64,000 nucleotides of DNA from Escherichia coli (GTDB lineage: Bacteria > Pseudomonadota > Gammaproteobacteria > Enterobacterales > Enterobacteriaceae). The stretch lies in the NCBI RefSeq assembly GCF_003790525.1, contig NZ_CP033635.1; one strand, 5' to 3'. Numbering within the stretch: position 1 is the stretch's first letter; each line of letters starts with the position of its first letter. The translations under genes were made by a program, and so were the position numbers. The notes below the pieces were generated by a model. It was not told where the DNA came from. It saw only the letters and a program-made list of their open reading frames with translations, and did not search any database. Below, piece by piece: positions 7,440-47,636 of this stretch.

Positions 7440-7570
7440 TATTGCTGACAAAGTGCGCTTTGTCCATGCCGGATGCGGCGCGAACGCCTTATCCGGCCTA
7501 CAAAAGTTTGCAAATTCAATAAATTGCAGAATTCATGTAGGCCTGATAAGCGAAGCGCATCAGGCATTTT
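7440..7570. repeat. REP/BIME elements between sbp and pfkA
   Basis: Copies of the REP consensus gccggatgcggcgcgaacgccttatccggcctac and the inverted copy gtaggcctgataagcgaagcgcatcaggc. Confidence 0.75.
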
Positions 7571-9745: not shown

Positions 9746-9792
9746 GATAAAAAAAACCCCCACATCATGTGGGGGAAGACAGGGATGGTGTC
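9746..9792. repeat. attL core (prophage-left copy of the cpxP-terminator repeat)
   Basis: gataaaaaaaacccccacatcatgtgggggaagacagggatggtgtc, identical over 47 bp to 44747..44793. Confidence 0.85.
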
Positions 9793-9840: not shown

Positions 9841-9860
9841 TGTCCACATAGCGTCCACAT
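9841..9860. promoter_or_regulatory. Putative integrase arm-type binding sites (tandem TGTCCACA repeats), left arm
   Basis: tgtccacatagcgtccacat; the same tandem motif recurs at 44646..44664 beside int. TGTCCACA is the reverse complement of the P2 Int arm consensus as recalled. Confidence 0.5.
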
Positions 9861-9891
9861 CGACCATAAATAAAGCCCCTCAACTGAGGGG

Positions 9892-11317
9892 TAATGCCGA
9901 TCAGTTAAGGATCAGTTGACCGATCCAGTGGCTGTGTAAGAATCCGGAAACGCTCACTTGTTTCCGGATTTTTTTATGCACATTGGACAGGCTCTTGATC
10001 TGGTATCCCGTTACGATTCTCTGCGTAACCCACTGACTTCTCTGGGGGATTACCTCGACCCCGAACTCATCTCTCGTTGCCTTGCCGAATCAGGTACTGT
10101 AACGCTACGCAAGCGCCGTCTTCCCCTCGAAATGATGGTCTGGTGTATTGTTGGCATGGCGCTTGAGCGTAAAGAACCTCTTCACCAGATTGTGAATCGC
10201 CTGGACATCATGCTGCCGGGCAATCGCCCCTTCGTTGCCCCCAGTGCCGTTATTCAGGCCCGCCAGCGCCTGGGAAGTGAGGCTGTCCGCCGCGTGTTCA
10301 CGAAAACAGCGCAGCTCTGGCATAACGCCACGCCGCATCCGCACTGGTGCGGCCTGACCCTGCTGGCCATCGATGGTGTGTTCTGGCGCACACCGGATAC
10401 ACCAGAGAACGATGCAGCCTTCCCCCGCCAGACACATGCCGGGAACCCGGCGCTCTACCCGCAGGTCAAAATGGTCTGCCAGATGGAACTGACCAGCCAT
10501 CTGCTGACGGCTGCAGCCTTCGGCACGATGAAGAACAGCGAAAATGAGCTTGCTGAGCAACTTATAGAACAAACCGGCGATAACACTCTGACGTTAATGG
10601 ATAAAGGTTATTACTCACTGGGACTGTTAAATGCCTGGAGCCTGGCGGGAGAACACCGCCACTGGATGATACCTCTCAGAAAGGGAGCGCAATATGAAGA
10701 GATCAGAAAACTGGGTAAAGGCGATCATCTGGTGAAGCTGAAAACCAGCCCGCAGGCACGAAAAAAGTGGCCGGGACTGGGAAATGAAGTGACAGCCCGC
10801 CTGCTGACCGTGACGCGCAAAGGAAAAGTCTGCCATCTGCTGACGTCGATGACGGACGCCATGCGCTTCCCCGGAGGAGAAATGGCGGATCTGTACAGTC
10901 ATCGCTGGGAAATCGAACTGGGATACAGGGAGATAAAACAGACGATGCAACTGAGCAGGCTGACGCTGAGAAGTAAAAAACCGGAGCTTGTGGAGCAAGA
11001 GCTGTGGGGTGTCTTACTGGCTTATAATCTGGTGAGATATCAGATGATTAAAATGGCGGAATATCTGAAAGGTTACTGGCCGAATCAACTGAGTTTCTCA
11101 GAATCATGTGGAATGGTGATGAGAATGCTGATGACATTGCAGGGCGCTTCACCGGGACGTATACCGGAGCTGATGCGCGATCTTGCAAGTATGGGACAAC
11201 TTGTGAAATTACCGACAAGAAGGGAAAGGGCCTTCCCGAGAGTGGTAAAGGAGAGGCCCTGGAAATACCCCACAGCCCCGAAAAAGAGCCAGTCAGTTGC
11301 TTAACTGACTGGCATTA
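9892..11317 (+). mobile_element. IS4 insertion sequence (1426 bp)
   Basis: Terminal inverted repeats taatgccgatcagttaagg / ccttaactgactggcatta (imperfect); flanked by a 13-bp direct duplication ctcaactgagggg at 9879..9891 and 11318..11330; single transposase ORF. Confidence 0.9.
9976..11304 (+). CDS. insG: IS4 transposase (DDE family)
   Basis: 442 aa from ATG 9976 ([40 protein letters not shown]...); ORF-track start at 9958 is a TTG extension. Confidence 0.9.
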
Positions 11318-11342
11318 CTCAACTGAGGGGCTATTTTTGTGA

Positions 11343-11561
11343 TCACATCCACATAATTTGCTGCCCTGACGGCAACGGGTGCGGCCTCACGGCGTGGACT
11401 TCTCCCGGCTTCACGATGTATCTCTGTACCGACTCATAAGTGATGAACGTGGCGCTGCAATTCACGTTCTGGCACTGGTGATAACGCTCTTTTGTCGTGT
11501 CAGTGATATAGCGGCTTGTACGCGCATGTGCGGCATGCTGGCATAAAGGACAATGAAACAT
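11343..11561 (-). CDS. ogr: Late-gene transcription activator Ogr (zinc finger)
   Basis: 72 aa, MFHCPLCQHAAHARTSRYITDTTKERYHQCQNVNCSATF...; four-Cys zinc finger; P2 Ogr length. Confidence 0.9.
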   Translation of the reverse strand: MFHCPLCQHAAHARTSRYITDTTKERYHQCQNVNCSATFITYESVQRYIVKPGEVHAVRPHPLPSGQQIMWM

Positions 11562-18264: not shown

Positions 18265-19164
18265 TCAAAGAATTAGCACTTGCTCTTCACTAGAAACTAT
18301 GGTTCTGACTTCACGCTCAAATATTGGATCCATTATCATTTTTCTATTTGTTGGAATAGTAAATTTACCGAGTACCATGACAATGCTACTCAACGGAAAT
18401 AATTTTGGAGTAACATTTCCTAATTGAATCGTAGGATATATATTAAAGCCCCCTTTTATCCTCATTGGCGAACCTTCAATGAAGTGTCGATAATTAAATT
18501 TCGCCATAGGGATTCTCGCCACATGCACTTTCATAATTACAGCAACCTGAGCTATTTTTACTTTCTGGAGGTAAGTTGACAATCGTTCTAACTGCGTTGT
18601 TTCATAGAAAAAATCAGACCACGTTACAGTACTTGTTCCAGTAACAATTTTTATGCTGTTTCTCTTGTTGGGGTGAGCTTTTCCATATTCATAGATCTCC
18701 CGTAAGCTATCCATGTTCTTCACATAAGGGGCTTTCCGACCTCTCTTGACATAAACGCGGTCTGTAGTATCAGAAGGTGGATTTGCCTGCATAGCTGCAG
18801 CTTTTCTGCTTAATTTAGAGATATCATCTTCATCGAGTATATGTATACGGAATATATTATTACCTGTGGCAAGCGCACGGCTGATATCATGACTGGAATC
18901 ACTTGCATAAATTGTATTCAATCCTGAAGTTCCATACTGGCATAATTTGTCATGCGTGAAATTTTTTTCCAGTCTAAAGAAGGCGGGGATATGCAAGGTT
19001 TTATTAAAACTCCGACGAATATGGCTTTTGACATACACCAAATGAGCAGAGCAATTTGGGTCAGGACATTTGAGTGGATAGGGATTAACACTATAATTAA
19101 AAGTATTTACATTTACTAAAATCTGATTGTTATCAATAGCCTGAGTTATACGAATACCACTCAT
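18265..19164 (-). CDS. Hypothetical protein at the Z/fun variable locus between G and FI (candidate anti-phage cargo)
   Basis: 299 aa ORF with GGAGG 5 nt upstream of the ATG; AT-rich relative to flanking tail genes; no family recognised by eye (contains CPDPNC). Confidence 0.6.
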   Translation of the reverse strand: MSGIRITQAIDNNQILVNVNTFNYSVNPYPLKCPDPNCSAHLVYVKSHIRRSFNKTLHIPAFFRLEKNFTHDKLCQYGTSGLNTIYASDSSHDISRALATGNNIFRIHILDEDDISKLSRKAAAMQANPPSDTTDRVYVKRGRKAPYVKNMDSLREIYEYGKAHPNKRNSIKIVTGTSTVTWSDFFYETTQLERLSTYLQKVKIAQVAVIMKVHVARIPMAKFNYRHFIEGSPMRIKGGFNIYPTIQLGNVTPKLFPLSSIVMVLGKFTIPTNRKMIMDPIFEREVRTIVSSEEQVLIL

Positions 19165-24439: not shown

Positions 24440-25225
24440 ATGTTCAGTGATAATGTGACTAATGCGTGGTGGTTTATCTCTTTGTATCTATTTTTATTAA
24501 TAGCATTAACATTTGTTACCTTTGGTAAAAGTAATCTTATGAGGTTTATTGCACATCATTTCAATCTTGAGTATTCAGACAGAAAGTTAAAAATGCTCGA
24601 CAAAAAATGGCGCGACATTCAACTATTTAAAATAATTAACGGAATCAATGTATCAGGCATCGAAGATGTGAGAATGATACAGCAGGGGCTGATTGATGGA
24701 AAACTAAAAACATCGTATTTTTTCCTTACTCGCTTCTGGGGTGACATAACAAAACCACCACACATAATTAAAACAACAATTGTAATTCTGGCCAGTATTA
24801 TTTATATTCTCTTCGCATGTTATATACACAATGAACAATCCGCTATAGTAAGGGATGCCATAGGTATACCATATAAAAATATGATGTACTATGTTTATAG
24901 TGACAAAGTTCTTTTATCCTTCAAAAATAAAACGGTTGAATTTAATAAAACTTATAGCCTTGCCGATTGCAAGAGTCTGCAAAACGTATTTATAAAAGAC
25001 ACACTTCCCGAGATCGCCTGCAATAAGCTCTTACAGCTAAACAAGGAGGACTCCGAATGGTTAAGTCAGGAGATTAAAGATAATAACAGCCACAGAAAAA
25101 CATTATTAATAATATCCCTAACCTATTTCATTTCAGGTCTGCTTATATTCCTGTCATATACAAAATTCCTTTACGCCAATAAGAAGGTTTTAGAATACAA
25201 AGCATCAAATAAAAACCACTCATAA
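24440..25225 (+). CDS. Hypothetical membrane protein at the orf30 position, opposite strand to the tail genes
   Basis: 261 aa, very AT-rich, about three predicted TM helices (WWFISLYLFLLIALTFVTF; TIVILASIIYILFACYI; LLIISLTYFISGLLIFLSY). Confidence 0.6.
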   Translation: MFSDNVTNAWWFISLYLFLLIALTFVTFGKSNLMRFIAHHFNLEYSDRKLKMLDKKWRDIQLFKIINGINVSGIEDVRMIQQGLIDGKLKTSYFFLTRFWGDITKPPHIIKTTIVILASIIYILFACYIHNEQSAIVRDAIGIPYKNMMYYVYSDKVLLSFKNKTVEFNKTYSLADCKSLQNVFIKDTLPEIACNKLLQLNKEDSEWLSQEIKDNNSHRKTLLIISLTYFISGLLIFLSYTKFLYANKKVLEYKASNKNHS

Positions 25226-34892: not shown

Positions 34893-35966
34893 ATGGATAA
34901 CAAAATCGTAGAAATTGAGACAAATAAGCTTGATTTTGACCCTAAAAACCCACGTTTCTTTCGTCTCAATGATGCCAGTAACGCTGCAACAGTCATTGAG
35001 GAAATGTTAGATGACGAAAGTGTCCACGATCTAATGCTATCAATCGGTCAGCAAGGTTACTTTCCTGGAGAACCTTTATTGGCAGTAAAAAGCAATGGAA
35101 ACTACATCGTGGTTGAGGGAAACAGACGCTTAGCTGCTGTAAAGTTGCTCAATGGAGATCTGCTTCCTCCAAAAAGAAAACTTAAAGGTGTGCAAGAAAT
35201 CATTGATGATACTACCAATAAACCTAAGAAGCTTCCCTGCATCATTTATGAAAACCGAGAGGATGTACTGAGATATATCGGTTATCGTCATATAACTGGG
35301 GTCAAAGAATGGGACTCATTATCTAAAGCCAAATACCTTAAAGAGTTATGTGATACTTTTTATTCACATGAGCCTAAAGAGATAGTATTAAAAAATCTGG
35401 CTCGTGAGATTGGGAGTAAACCACATTATGTTGCAACACTTCTCACTGCACTGAACTTATATGAAGTCGCGCATGACCATGAGTTTTTTAATTTACCCAT
35501 GAAGGCTTCTGACGTGGAATTTTCATATATAACCACAGCTTTGGGATATTCAAAAATCACAAACTGGTTAGGTCTACAGGATAAAAAGGATTTTTTAGAC
35601 CCAAATTTAAATGAAGAAAACCTTAAGCGTTTATTCTCTTGGTTTTTTGTGCCTGACCAACAAGGTAGAACCATCATCGGTGAGTCTCGAAGAATAAAAG
35701 ATATTGCAGCAGTGGTTGAGAAACCCGAAGCAATTGAAATTCTCATGAAAAGTTCAAACTTGGATGAAGCATATCTATATACCAGCGGAGAAAGAGAAGC
35801 ATTAGATAAAGCACTAAACGCAGCTAGTGTTAAATTAAGAGTAGTTTGGGATATGCTACTTAAAGCTAAAGAATTAACATTAGAGCATGAAGAGGCTGCA
35901 TCTGAAATTTTTGAGATGTCAAAAAATATTAGAAATCAGATCAGAAGCAAAAGGGAGGATGATTGA
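34893..35966 (+). CDS. ParB/Srx-like N-terminal domain protein (cargo gene 1 at the old/tin position)
   Basis: 357 aa from ATG 34893 (RBS gagg upstream); ParB-box-like motifs LDFDPKNPRF and IVVEGNRRLAAVKLL; AT-rich. Confidence 0.7.
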   Translation: MDNKIVEIETNKLDFDPKNPRFFRLNDASNAATVIEEMLDDESVHDLMLSIGQQGYFPGEPLLAVKSNGNYIVVEGNRRLAAVKLLNGDLLPPKRKLKGVQEIIDDTTNKPKKLPCIIYENREDVLRYIGYRHITGVKEWDSLSKAKYLKELCDTFYSHEPKEIVLKNLAREIGSKPHYVATLLTALNLYEVAHDHEFFNLPMKASDVEFSYITTALGYSKITNWLGLQDKKDFLDPNLNEENLKRLFSWFFVPDQQGRTIIGESRRIKDIAAVVEKPEAIEILMKSSNLDEAYLYTSGEREALDKALNAASVKLRVVWDMLLKAKELTLEHEEAASEIFEMSKNIRNQIRSKREDD

Positions 35967-35970
35967 GATT

Positions 35971-36996
35971 ATGATTACAAATCTTGATTCAATGCCTTCT
36001 AATGAGCCTTATTTATGGGCTGATTATATTGAGATATTGGCCTTAACTAATATCGACAGGTCATTCAGTCGAGGAGACCTATATAGCACACTGCAAGCTC
36101 AACCCGAAGCAGTACTAGCTGAAACAGATGAAGCAGAAGAAGAGGGCGTTTATGATGTTGATGATGAAAATGATACGCCTGTACGCAAGAGAACAAAACG
36201 AAGTGTTAGTCGAGCATATACTGACAGAAAGTGGAGCTATGCGATAGGCTTCATACGACAACGCATTGATTTATTTGGGGATAGTTACCCTTTTACTTTA
36301 TCAGAAGACAACGATACTGTAGAGTTACGTGATATATCAGAAAAGCCACTGGAACATTTAGAAAGACTATATTTAGCTTTACTAATCTGTGCTAACATAA
36401 AATATGTCAACATAATGAGCAGAAGAGAGATAACGCGCAGTTTTGAACTAATTAGTTTACCTATTTTTGAAAGCCTAATGCCTAGCGGTAGCATAATAAA
36501 AGCATGCTGGGCTTCTGGTGGTCAAGCGGCCCCTTACACTGGAACTCTATATAATAAATTTAAGAGTATTGCTTCCGATATCCGTTGCACAGCGAACTTC
36601 AAAGAACGAGATTTCAGTCGAGGAAATAGTGGTGACGGAGGCCTTGACATAATTGCCTGGCATCCAATGGGAGATCAACGAGATGCCATCCCTATTTCTT
36701 TTGTTCAGTGTGGCTGTTCTCAAGAAGAGTGGGAAGCGAAGCAGCTTGAGGCCTCACCTGCGATGCTCTACAGTAAATTCCCCGTAGCTCACCGATGGGC
36801 AACTTATTATTTCTTACCTCAAGATCTACGATGGATAGATGGTGAGTGGGCGCATAAAAATAAGTTAGGCGATGCTATTTTTGTTGATCGCCTAAGATTA
36901 ATCAATTTAACCAGAGCATCTGATAATATTGATCACAGTCAAAATATTAGCTATCTAGATATCATCCTTGATCCTTCCAGCGCGATCGCTGCTTAA
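35971..36996 (+). CDS. Hypothetical protein, possible PD-(D/E)xK-type nuclease (cargo gene 2)
   Basis: 341 aa; starts 4 nt after gene 1 (alternative ATG 35959 overlaps its stop); contains GDGGLDIIAW ... ISFVQCGCSQEEWEAK, resembling an Mrr-type catalytic core but lacking the canonical QCK lysine. Confidence 0.6.
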   Translation: MITNLDSMPSNEPYLWADYIEILALTNIDRSFSRGDLYSTLQAQPEAVLAETDEAEEEGVYDVDDENDTPVRKRTKRSVSRAYTDRKWSYAIGFIRQRIDLFGDSYPFTLSEDNDTVELRDISEKPLEHLERLYLALLICANIKYVNIMSRREITRSFELISLPIFESLMPSGSIIKACWASGGQAAPYTGTLYNKFKSIASDIRCTANFKERDFSRGNSGDGGLDIIAWHPMGDQRDAIPISFVQCGCSQEEWEAKQLEASPAMLYSKFPVAHRWATYYFLPQDLRWIDGEWAHKNKLGDAIFVDRLRLINLTRASDNIDHSQNISYLDIILDPSSAIAA

Positions 36997-37931
36997 TCCC
37001 ATAAATCTGGAAGGTTTCTAGCAACCGCCTCAAACAATGGAGGCGGTACTGCATTACCTACCACAGTATATTTCATATTAATAGAAGCCCGTTCAGTTTC
37101 TGGGAAAATTAAATCCCCAAAACCTTGTAAAATAGCAGCCTCTCGATAGCTAAACCTACGAGCTGGTGCATCCGAAGTAAATTGCCACTTATCAGGTCCC
37201 AATTTTTCTAATGTTGGACTTATTGGATGTAGAGGCATATGTCTAGGATTTGCAACAATTGTTTTAGATATCTGATCCCAATCTTGCCTACGGTTTCGCG
37301 ATAGATAATACCAATGAAAATCGGCGTCATAAAACTCGCCAACAGGCCAAACAGGCATATGCCCAATAGCATCACGAATTGTGGAATATGGTGTCAAACC
37401 ATCACCATGTGTTGGTTTTGGAAATTTGTATGTAATACCGTAGTCCTTTCGTATTCCTACGATAAAGATTCGCTTCCTATCTTGGGATACCCCATAATGG
37501 GACGCATTCAGAATTTGCGAGCTTACTGTATAACCTGCTTCTTCGAAAACTTTGAATTGATCCTTTAATAAATGCTCAAAGTTACGCCTTACCATACCAG
37601 AGACATTCTCTACAATGAATGCTTTTGGCTTAATTTTACTCAAAGCACGGGCAAACTCTAAATATAGTGTATTAATCTTTCTATCTGCCTTCCTTGCCCC
37701 ACCTTGACTAAATCCTTGGCAAGGATAGCATCCGATGAGCAACTCAGCAGAAGGGAACGACTGGAGCCCTGAGATATCGCCCAAAATGTAGTCAGTTTCA
37801 GGATGGTTTTCTAAGTAAACGTCCCTTGCGTAAGGCAAAATATCATTTGCCATAAGCACATTGAAACCTGCGTTCAAAACTCCCGCATCAGAACCACCAC
37901 ATCCAGAAAAAAGTGAAACTACAGTTGGCAT
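36993..37931 (-). CDS. DNA cytosine-5 methyltransferase, HaeIII/HhaI-type small m5C MTase (cargo gene 3)
   Basis: 312 aa with motif I FSGCGG, motif IV PCQGFS, motif VI ENV, motif VIII QDRKR, motif X GNAVPPPL, plus YYLSRNRRQDW resembling the M.HaeIII variable region; convergent with gene 2 (4-bp overlap). Confidence 0.85.
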   Translation of the reverse strand: MPTVVSLFSGCGGSDAGVLNAGFNVLMANDILPYARDVYLENHPETDYILGDISGLQSFPSAELLIGCYPCQGFSQGGARKADRKINTLYLEFARALSKIKPKAFIVENVSGMVRRNFEHLLKDQFKVFEEAGYTVSSQILNASHYGVSQDRKRIFIVGIRKDYGITYKFPKPTHGDGLTPYSTIRDAIGHMPVWPVGEFYDADFHWYYLSRNRRQDWDQISKTIVANPRHMPLHPISPTLEKLGPDKWQFTSDAPARRFSYREAAILQGFGDLIFPETERASINMKYTVVGNAVPPPLFEAVARNLPDLWD

Positions 37932-44645: not shown

Positions 44646-44664
44646 TGTCCACATAGTGTCCACA
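44646..44664. promoter_or_regulatory. Putative integrase arm-type binding sites, right arm
   Basis: tgtccacatagtgtccaca, matching the left-arm copy at 9841..9860. Confidence 0.5.
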
Positions 44665-44746
44665 CTCTCAGAACTTTGTAGCCCTTCCAGTCCCTTATAG
44701 GTTTTCTTAAGTTACTGTTTTCTTACGGAAACCGATGTAAGTGATT

Positions 44747-44793
44747 GATAAAAAAAACCCCCACATCATGTGGGGGAAGACAGGGATGGTGTC
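44747..44793. repeat. attR core, identical to attL; carries the cpxP/CpxQ terminator hairpin
   Basis: 47-bp identity with 9746..9792; contains cccccacat-c-atgtggggg next to an A/T run. Confidence 0.85.
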
Positions 44794-47545: not shown

Positions 47546-47636
47546 GTAGGCAGGATAAGGCGTTTACGCCGCATCCGGCATTTGAGCAGGATGCCTGATG
47601 CGACGCTGATAGCGTCTTATCAGGCCTACACTCCGG
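47546..47636. repeat. REP/BIME elements after cpxA
   Basis: gtaggcaggataaggcgtttacgccgcatccggca and gatgcctgatgcgacgctgatagcgtcttatcaggcctac. Confidence 0.7.

Follow-up and report, generated by a model that had tools for sequence, protein, structure and literature searches.

The window, that is, the whole 64-kb stretch of DNA that was analysed, is 100% identical to the chromosome of Escherichia coli SMS-3-5 (NC_010498.1, reverse strand). The locus studied here lies in a P2-like (Peduovirus) prophage of the Wphi type at cpxP-fieF, the site given for the Wphi1 prophage of E. coli W (PMC3032704). In the RefSeq annotation, the prophage is bounded by fieF beside attL and by cpxP beside attR; the P2 gene order of int, C, cox, replication, capsid, tail, D and ogr genes is present within the att repeats, and the SMS-3-5 annotation shows every prophage gene as intact and none as a pseudogene. 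An IS4 element was originally predicted between attL and ogr, inside the prophage, and the coordinates of the att core and of ogr place it there. The features of the locus are as follows:

9746-9792, no strand: attL copy of the 47-bp att core (exact direct repeat with 44747-44793)
9841-9848 and 9852-9859, minus strand: pair of direct Int arm-type repeats on the ogr side, TGTGGACA and TGTGGACG (consensus match)
9879-9891, no strand: left copy of the 13-bp target-site duplication CTCAACTGAGGGG (direct-repeat search)
9892-11317, plus strand: complete IS4, 1426 bp (RefSeq annotation in NC_010498.1 and comparison with K-12)
9892-9909, plus strand: left terminal inverted repeat of IS4, TAATGCCGATCAGTTAAG (inverted-repeat pair with the right end)
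9976-11304, plus strand: IS4 transposase gene, 442 amino acids from ATG (NCBIfam, Pfam)
11300-11317, minus strand: right terminal inverted repeat of IS4 (inverted-repeat pair with the left end)
11318-11330, no strand: right copy of the 13-bp target-site duplication CTCAACTGAGGGG (direct-repeat search)
11343-11561, minus strand: ogr (ogrK in RefSeq), late-gene activator, 72 amino acids (NCBIfam NF007241, 177.6 bits)
44646-44664, minus strand: pair of Int arm-type repeats on the int side (consensus match)
44747-44793, no strand: attR copy of the 47-bp att core, adjoining int and cpxP (exact direct repeat with 9746-9792)

The transposase gene and ogr are convergent. By matching the arms to the consensus of P2-type Int arm sites, tgTGGaCa (PMC3448106), two arm-type repeats were located on each side of the att core, as in P2-like phages. 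The start of IS4 is 99 bp from the att core and 32 bp beyond the outer arm-type repeat of the ogr side, close to the 100 bp and 30 bp that had been estimated. With IS4 the prophage is 35,001 bp long, and without it 33,562 bp; the gain of 1,439 bp, or 4.3%, agrees with the figure of about 4 percent given earlier. A third candidate Int arm site (TGTGGATG, 11346-11353), beyond IS4, is a weak match inside the last codons of ogr; it is probably coincidental and was not counted. The P2 Cox-box consensus TTAAA[G/C]NC[A/C] has no match in either att arm, and the Cox of this phage may read other sequences. One IHF-like match occurs in the int-side arm at 44738-44750. Rfam and tRNA scans returned nothing at or near the insertion.

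The RefSeq label of the element in SMS-3-5 is "IS4-like element IS4 family transposase". Its terminal inverted repeats are identical at 16 of 18 positions between left and right. The end signature of the IS4 subgroup is -AATR--------WTW, and its members are 1400-1650 bp long (PMC2266710). In the present element, positions 2-5 of the left end read AATG and positions 14-16 read TTA, and the length of 1426 bp, which is also that of the IS4 of K-12, falls within the range. The duplication of exactly 13 bp likewise falls within the 10-13 bp of the subgroup. In RefSeq the transposase starts at a TTG at position 9958, giving 448 amino acids. The protein scores 304 bits against NCBIfam NF033592 (cut-off 115), and in Pfam it matches Nterm_IS4 (3e-33) and DDE_Tnp_1 over the full length of the profile. 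A YREK motif of the type Y(2)R(3)E(6)K is visible in its translation, and the reading frame has no internal stop codons, so that at the level of domains and motif it is a DDE transposase encoded by a single reading frame with an IS4 N-terminal domain. The 1426-bp IS4 of the original prediction is thus real, its exact span being 9892-11317 and its identity to the K-12 element 99.6%. The element is an ordinary, already annotated copy of classical E. coli IS4. Since its reading frame and ends are intact and identical copies occur at many different sites, this complete copy is predicted to be probably active.

The insertion was also described as simple, with an intact 13-bp target duplication. In the 64 kb of the window, CTCAACTGAGGGG occurs just twice, even when one mismatch is allowed (chance expectation 0.03). 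Both copies abut the ends of IS4 exactly, and the neighbouring bases beyond them differ, so the duplication is exactly 13 bp. Comparison with IS-free relatives, as had been proposed, yielded a clean empty site: the IS-free phage genome NC_070904.1 (33,562 bp, attP / cos-ended form) holds one copy of CTCAACTGAGGGG at 10215-10227, matching both junctions. By aligning this genome with the prophage, three gapless pieces of 99.4-100% identity were obtained, and the sole structural difference is IS4 together with one extra copy of the 13 bp. This gapless collinearity indicates that the insertion is simple and that the prophage is otherwise complete. Consequently, both parts of the earlier description stand. 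A target that is nearly palindromic makes short repeats around it unsurprising, and the flanking repeat might on that ground be a chance product of a palindromic terminator with no footprint of transposition. The probability of this is negligible: the 64 kb contain the exact 13-mer at two places only, each abutting an end of IS4, and it is single-copy both in the IS-free phage and in an IS-free E. coli site. Nothing contradicts the identity of the element or its simple insertion. In addition, SMS-3-5 and NC_070904.1 make up a pair of filled and empty sites that is available for testing the effect of the extra DNA or of the split ogr/int terminator.

The sequence into which IS4 inserted is itself structured. 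In the IS-free phage, the terminator scan found a hairpin, AGCCCCTCAACTGAGGGGCT (phage 10210-10229), with a T-rich tail on both strands. The intact hairpin lies 8 nt downstream of the stop codon of ogr, and on the other strand it lies downstream of int and attP. The transcript of the ogr side folds here with -22 kcal/mol (z = -5.7). The target of the insertion is, by prediction, a two-way intrinsic terminator between ogr and att, and the uninterrupted site reads ATAAAG-CCCCTCAACTGAGGGG-CTATTTTT. This identity of the target, and the fact that it is a recurrent IS4 hot spot (see below), were missing from the original prediction. After the insertion, three hairpins are found at the junctions and inside the ends of the element:

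9876-9891, minus strand: remaining complete hairpin CCCCTCAACTGAGGGG of the split terminator, with IS4 now between it and ogr (terminator scan)
9938-9973, plus strand: hairpin followed by a run of seven T, in the left end of IS4 just upstream of the transposase ATG (fold, inverted-repeat pair)
11288-11313, minus strand: hairpin with an 11-bp stem followed by TCTTTTTC, inside the right end of IS4 (terminator scan and fold)

The half-hairpin on the ogr side is truncated by IS4, and the ogr transcript now first reaches the right-end hairpin (UCUUUUUC tail), 5 nt inside the element. The left-end hairpin folds with -26.6 kcal/mol (z = -6.4); it is supported by this fold and is not listed by the terminator scan of the plus strand. 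The same scan found no clear plus-strand terminator between the transposase gene and ogr.

By surveying 5,426 complete E. coli genomes, we found that this site has been used repeatedly. IS4 occupies the ogr-terminator site in the orientation of the window in 13 genomes, and in five others it lies in the opposite orientation at these same 13 bp, which are again duplicated; next to fieF the site is uninterrupted in 679 genomes with related prophages. In-place inversion as a source of the opposite-orientation copies was rejected, as it would put GT rather than AC at the centre of the flanking repeats, and all of them show the pattern of simple insertion. Four sequence variants of IS4 occupy the site, namely that of the window, the consensus, that of K-12 and, in strain R8, a distinct one. 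Since gene conversion between IS copies could also place several variants at a single site, at least two independent events, one for each orientation, are secure, and four or more are probable for the one 13-bp target. Repeated independent insertions into a single 13-bp target make the site a hot spot. This bears on the use of IS4 positions as clonal markers, since an identical position need not mean common descent.

The choice of this site agrees with what could be learned of the target preference of IS4. For some elements of the IS4 subgroup, the specificity within the arms of the target has been called "spectacular" (PMC2266710). At IS4 insertions we observed a pattern of an A-tract, a C-rich half, a G-rich half and a T-tract, which the ogr site fits closely; intrinsic terminators by their nature have this shape. 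According to Mayaux et al. in 1984, the IS4 target consensus is reportedly AAA-N20-TTT, and the reconstructed empty site, AAA-GCCCCTCAACTGAGGGGCTA-TTT, fits this rule. A search of the open literature found no paper stating this consensus or the targeting of terminators by IS4. Twelve distinct sites of E. coli and plasmids were read, and nine of them resemble terminator hairpins in our own reading of flanks and folds, where it must be kept in mind that some sites had been chosen for flanks resembling the ogr site, so that this subset is biased towards terminators. The nine are ogr, ompA, finO (of F-like plasmids), a second ogr-like gene from a different P2-like prophage, eno, bamD, adhE, lldP (IS4 lying beside the gene) and lpxM/pyk; the K-12 reference copy, bcsG and atoC are outside such hairpins. 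On the other hand, sites from the IS-only search and from a scan of other species are free of the flank-selection bias. The latter, a search for the left end of IS4 in one genome per species, contributed 16 contig ends of Kosakonia oryziphila and one of Photorhabdus khanii, and with these 17 the flank statistics cover 29 distinct sites. AAA is present at -22 to -14 upstream of the insertion point in 21 of the 29 (background 11%, binomial p = 2e-14). The flanks are C-rich at -14 to -9, and from -4 to -1 every position has G as its commonest base, the preference being strong at -4, -3 and -1. These data add support for the choice of terminator-like sites by IS4.

The age of the insertion was assessed from the same genomes. 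Ten genomes have a prophage that is 99.7-100% identical to that of the window over 23.3 kb, and all of them carry the IS4 insertion; the best IS-free prophages are 99.4% identical. From this it follows that the insertion goes back to the ancestor of a clone that is small and geographically spread. At least seven further complete genomes, whose sources are river water, chicken and humans, have the identical insertion with 100% identical flanks, and two to three more have it at 99.7-99.9%. In our reading, the window copy entered the ancestor of this clone, which includes SMS-3-5, a single time and has been passed on with the prophage. SMS-3-5 itself has five copies of IS4, a count that had been called for, and that at its eno terminator is 100% identical to the copy of the window. 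IS4 was found in 2,686 of the 5,426 genomes, with a median of one copy and roughly 5,500 copies in all, and copies identical to the window variant lie at other sites in many genomes; on these sequences, the variant appears to be currently mobile. In the phage collection, none of the P2-like records has IS4, and the element was found in two lambda-like records only.

The insertion had been called recent, and two observations speak for this: the duplication is perfect, and another IS4 of SMS-3-5 is 100% identical to this one. If recent were taken to mean very recent and private to the strain, the same two observations would have to be weighed against the presence of the insertion, with 100% identical flanks, in those seven or more other genomes and, at 99.7-99.9%, in two to three more, and in all ten of the prophages that are at least 99.7% identical; the differing lengths and sources of the records argue against re-sequenced derivatives of one isolate. 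An insertion private to the strain is therefore very improbable, and the word recent holds only in part, the insertion being common to a clone of ten genomes. At the opposite extreme, IS4 may be ancestral to the phage lineage, the IS-free forms having arisen by precise excision. The element is indeed fixed among prophages that are at least 99.7% identical, and a fixed lineage feature is what the original prediction had named as its refutation; it is absent, however, from the 679 genomes with an uninterrupted site, as compared with 18 that carry IS4, and from all P2-like phage records. Moreover, both orientations and several IS4 variants are seen on different prophage backgrounds, and transposable elements rarely excise so precisely that one 13-bp copy alone is left. 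An ancestral IS4 can hardly be upheld. As far as genome comparison can tell, the insertion is neither strain-private nor a feature of the wider phage lineage, but is fixed in a narrow lineage, and as such it marks the small E. coli clone that includes SMS-3-5.

The data also suggest that IS-bearing prophages are scattered at the tips and are not basal.

The effects of the insertion can be predicted from its position. The inward-facing terminator-like hairpin inside each end of IS4 should stop read-through into the transposase gene, and we infer that these end hairpins should largely replace the split terminator. Transcripts of ogr, and of int in the circular form of the phage, would still be terminated within about 40-90 nt. 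Given terminator-like hairpins just inside both ends of IS4, the termination of ogr is probably little affected, as judged from the predicted folds. All recognisable Int arm-type sites lie between the att core and IS4; with the core and these sites contiguous and IS4 outside them, excision would probably be unaffected. The disturbance of ogr termination or of excision geometry that had been raised as a possibility looks unlikely on these grounds. The predicted main cost of IS4, and a plausible one, may be the cos-to-cos length. At 35.0 kb, the prophage with IS4 is about 1.2 kb above the range of close relatives (29.2-33.8 kb in those with capsid genes at least 97.5% identical); a literature search on the packaging limits of P2 found nothing specific.

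IS3-family and ISEc12 insertions, as well as deletions, occur in related prophages too, so that gradual decay of such prophages is common.

It may be argued that the insertion cripples the prophage, through an over-long genome, through convergent or antisense transcription into ogr, or through loss of the int/ogr terminator, and that it persists as part of a phage tamed by the host. The length of 35,001 bp exceeds that of all listed close relatives sharing its capsid genes, there is no clear plus-strand terminator between the converging transposase and ogr genes, the relatives gather other insertion sequences and deletions, and IS4-bearing P2-like phages are missing from the collection. On the other hand, the prophage genes are annotated as intact and the prophage is gapless against the phage genome, the end hairpins of IS4 could replace the terminator, the excess of 4.3% is small, and more distant P2-like phages of 35.1 kb exist. 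Furthermore, since two lambda-like phage records bear IS4, carriage of an IS is not inherently incompatible with a phage genome. Based on these points, we consider a crippling effect unlikely.

Based on the results presented above, the best explanation overall, to which we assign a probability of roughly 93%, is that IS4 was inserted by simple transposition, with a staggered cut of 13 bp in the target, into the GC-rich hairpin of the two-way terminator between ogr and attP of a P2-like prophage. A broader reading is offered only tentatively, and we would sooner doubt than accept it: IS4 may home to terminators, splitting them and functionally replacing them by terminators of its own ends, so that they would be low-cost sites, and the ogr/int terminator of Wphi-type phages, as a recurrent hot spot, could let IS4 travel in phage particles. 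What was observed directly is the hot spot and the target signal; that the end hairpins are an adaptation for replacing a terminator, and that IS4 spreads on phages, is conjecture. By itself the finding is of small significance: the element belongs to the textbooks, and the public genome already has this copy annotated. The added value lies in explaining the site, a terminator matching the target pattern of IS4 that the element has entered repeatedly, and in providing a clean empty-site reference.

Compared with other Wphi-type prophages at cpxP-fieF (such as Wphi1 of E. coli W, and the phage record NC_070904.1), the prophage of the window has the same chromosomal site and the same gene order, and it aligns with them gaplessly at 99.4-99.5% identity; these relatives are without IS4, whereas the window prophage is 1,439 bp longer. 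The IS4 of K-12 MG1655 (insG; mobile element 4,502,090-4,503,515 of NC_000913.3) and that of the window are both 1426 bp long, with the same terminal repeats and a transposase of 442 amino acids. They differ at 6 of 1426 nucleotides (99.6% identity) and at 3 of 442 amino acids, which are, with the residue of the window first and that of K-12 InsG last, A304G, L326R and Y363H. The duplication is 12 bp in K-12 and 13 bp here, which is the same length class. The K-12 copy, on the other hand, is at another location and its target has no hairpin, whereas the window variant occupies many sites in many genomes.

The other IS4 copies sited in terminators (ompA, finO, eno, bamD, adhE, lpxM/pyk and the other ogr-like gene) are similar to that at ogr in that a duplication of 12-14 bp is centred on a GC-rich hairpin, with an A-run and a T-run around it, directly downstream of a gene. 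Their hairpin sequences differ, however, and only the ogr terminator of the present phage type was observed to be hit in both orientations and on several backgrounds. Structured, palindromic intergenic targets are also used by the REP-targeting elements IS1397, ISKpn1 and ISPpu9 and by ISRm22 (IS4 family), which spare genes (PMC1525189). In contrast to the REP-targeting elements, which use the repeated REP family, IS4 takes unique intrinsic terminators as its targets, and a few of its copies, those in bcsG and atoC, lie inside genes.

The 47-bp att core contains a terminator hairpin in each of its two copies, with the sequence CCCCCACATGATGTGGGGG and a T8 run after it:
9757-9775, minus strand, terminator hairpin in the attL core
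44757-44775, minus strand, terminator hairpin in the attR core
The attR copy lies directly downstream of cpxP, where it would terminate both cpxP and CpxQ, the small RNA from the cpxP 3'-UTR. The presence of this hairpin within the core, and its position at attR, indicate that the phage uses a terminator as its integration target and regenerates it upon integration.

One deleted version of the prophage, in which ogr is fused to a truncated tail-sheath gene, is found in the genomes of both FXCREC180 and JXZ9A32M. The two also have an IS4 variant in common, but the element occupies the shared 13-bp target in one orientation in FXCREC180 and in the reverse orientation in JXZ9A32M. Either IS4 entered this defective background twice, or it was excised and then inserted again. 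In strain 2016C-3878, IS4 is located in the bamD-raiA spacer, directly downstream of bamD, and its 14-bp target duplication contains one mismatch, the copies at the two ends of the element reading CAGTCCTTGAGCTG and CAGCCCTTGAGCTG. The mismatch reflects either a mutation that arose later than the IS4 insertion or a target heteroduplex whose two ends were repaired differently.

IS4 ends were also found under labels other than Escherichia. The left end is present on a 265-bp contig (NZ_BPQU01000128.1) labelled Methylobacterium mesophilicum NBRC 15688, where it is preceded by 45 bp that match the IS4 site of K-12 MG1655 exactly; the contig looks like E. coli K-12 contamination of the assembly. 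In Kosakonia oryziphila REICA_142, at least 16 contigs carry the IS4 left end, with 40 nt identical to the E. coli element; the majority of these ends are close to a contig end, and they mostly adjoin A-tract / GC-rich flanks. Given this number of contigs, IS4 seems to have expanded within this non-Escherichia genome.

Rfam gave two matches, each above the gathering score, in chromosomal intergenic regions that flank the prophage:
7503-7544, ES036 (CssrF)
47549-47626, naRNA4 (CssrE)
Neither match is related to the IS4 insertion. Within the prophage, three regions carry candidate cargo or hypothetical genes:
34893-37931, beside cos, candidate cargo region with a DNA cytosine methyltransferase, a hypothetical protein and a ParB N-terminal-domain protein
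about 18265-19164, hypothetical gene breaking up the tail gene blocks
about 24440-25225, hypothetical gene breaking up the tail gene blocks
The first of these looks like the cargo slot of the prophage, and the genes of all three could be accessory or defence genes.

Prophages of the same family in GN03551/GN03139, D10, EC45 and APEC E19035 contain IS3-family or ISEc12 (IS21-like) insertions in the late-gene region. Among 50,697 phage records, a full IS4 occurs in only two, LR595863.1 (Lambda_4B5) and PV340577.1 (PhiR70_1), both about 48 kb, at 99.2-99.6% identity to the window copy. The former is labelled as Lambda virus, and PhiR70_1 is assumed from its size to be likewise lambda-like.
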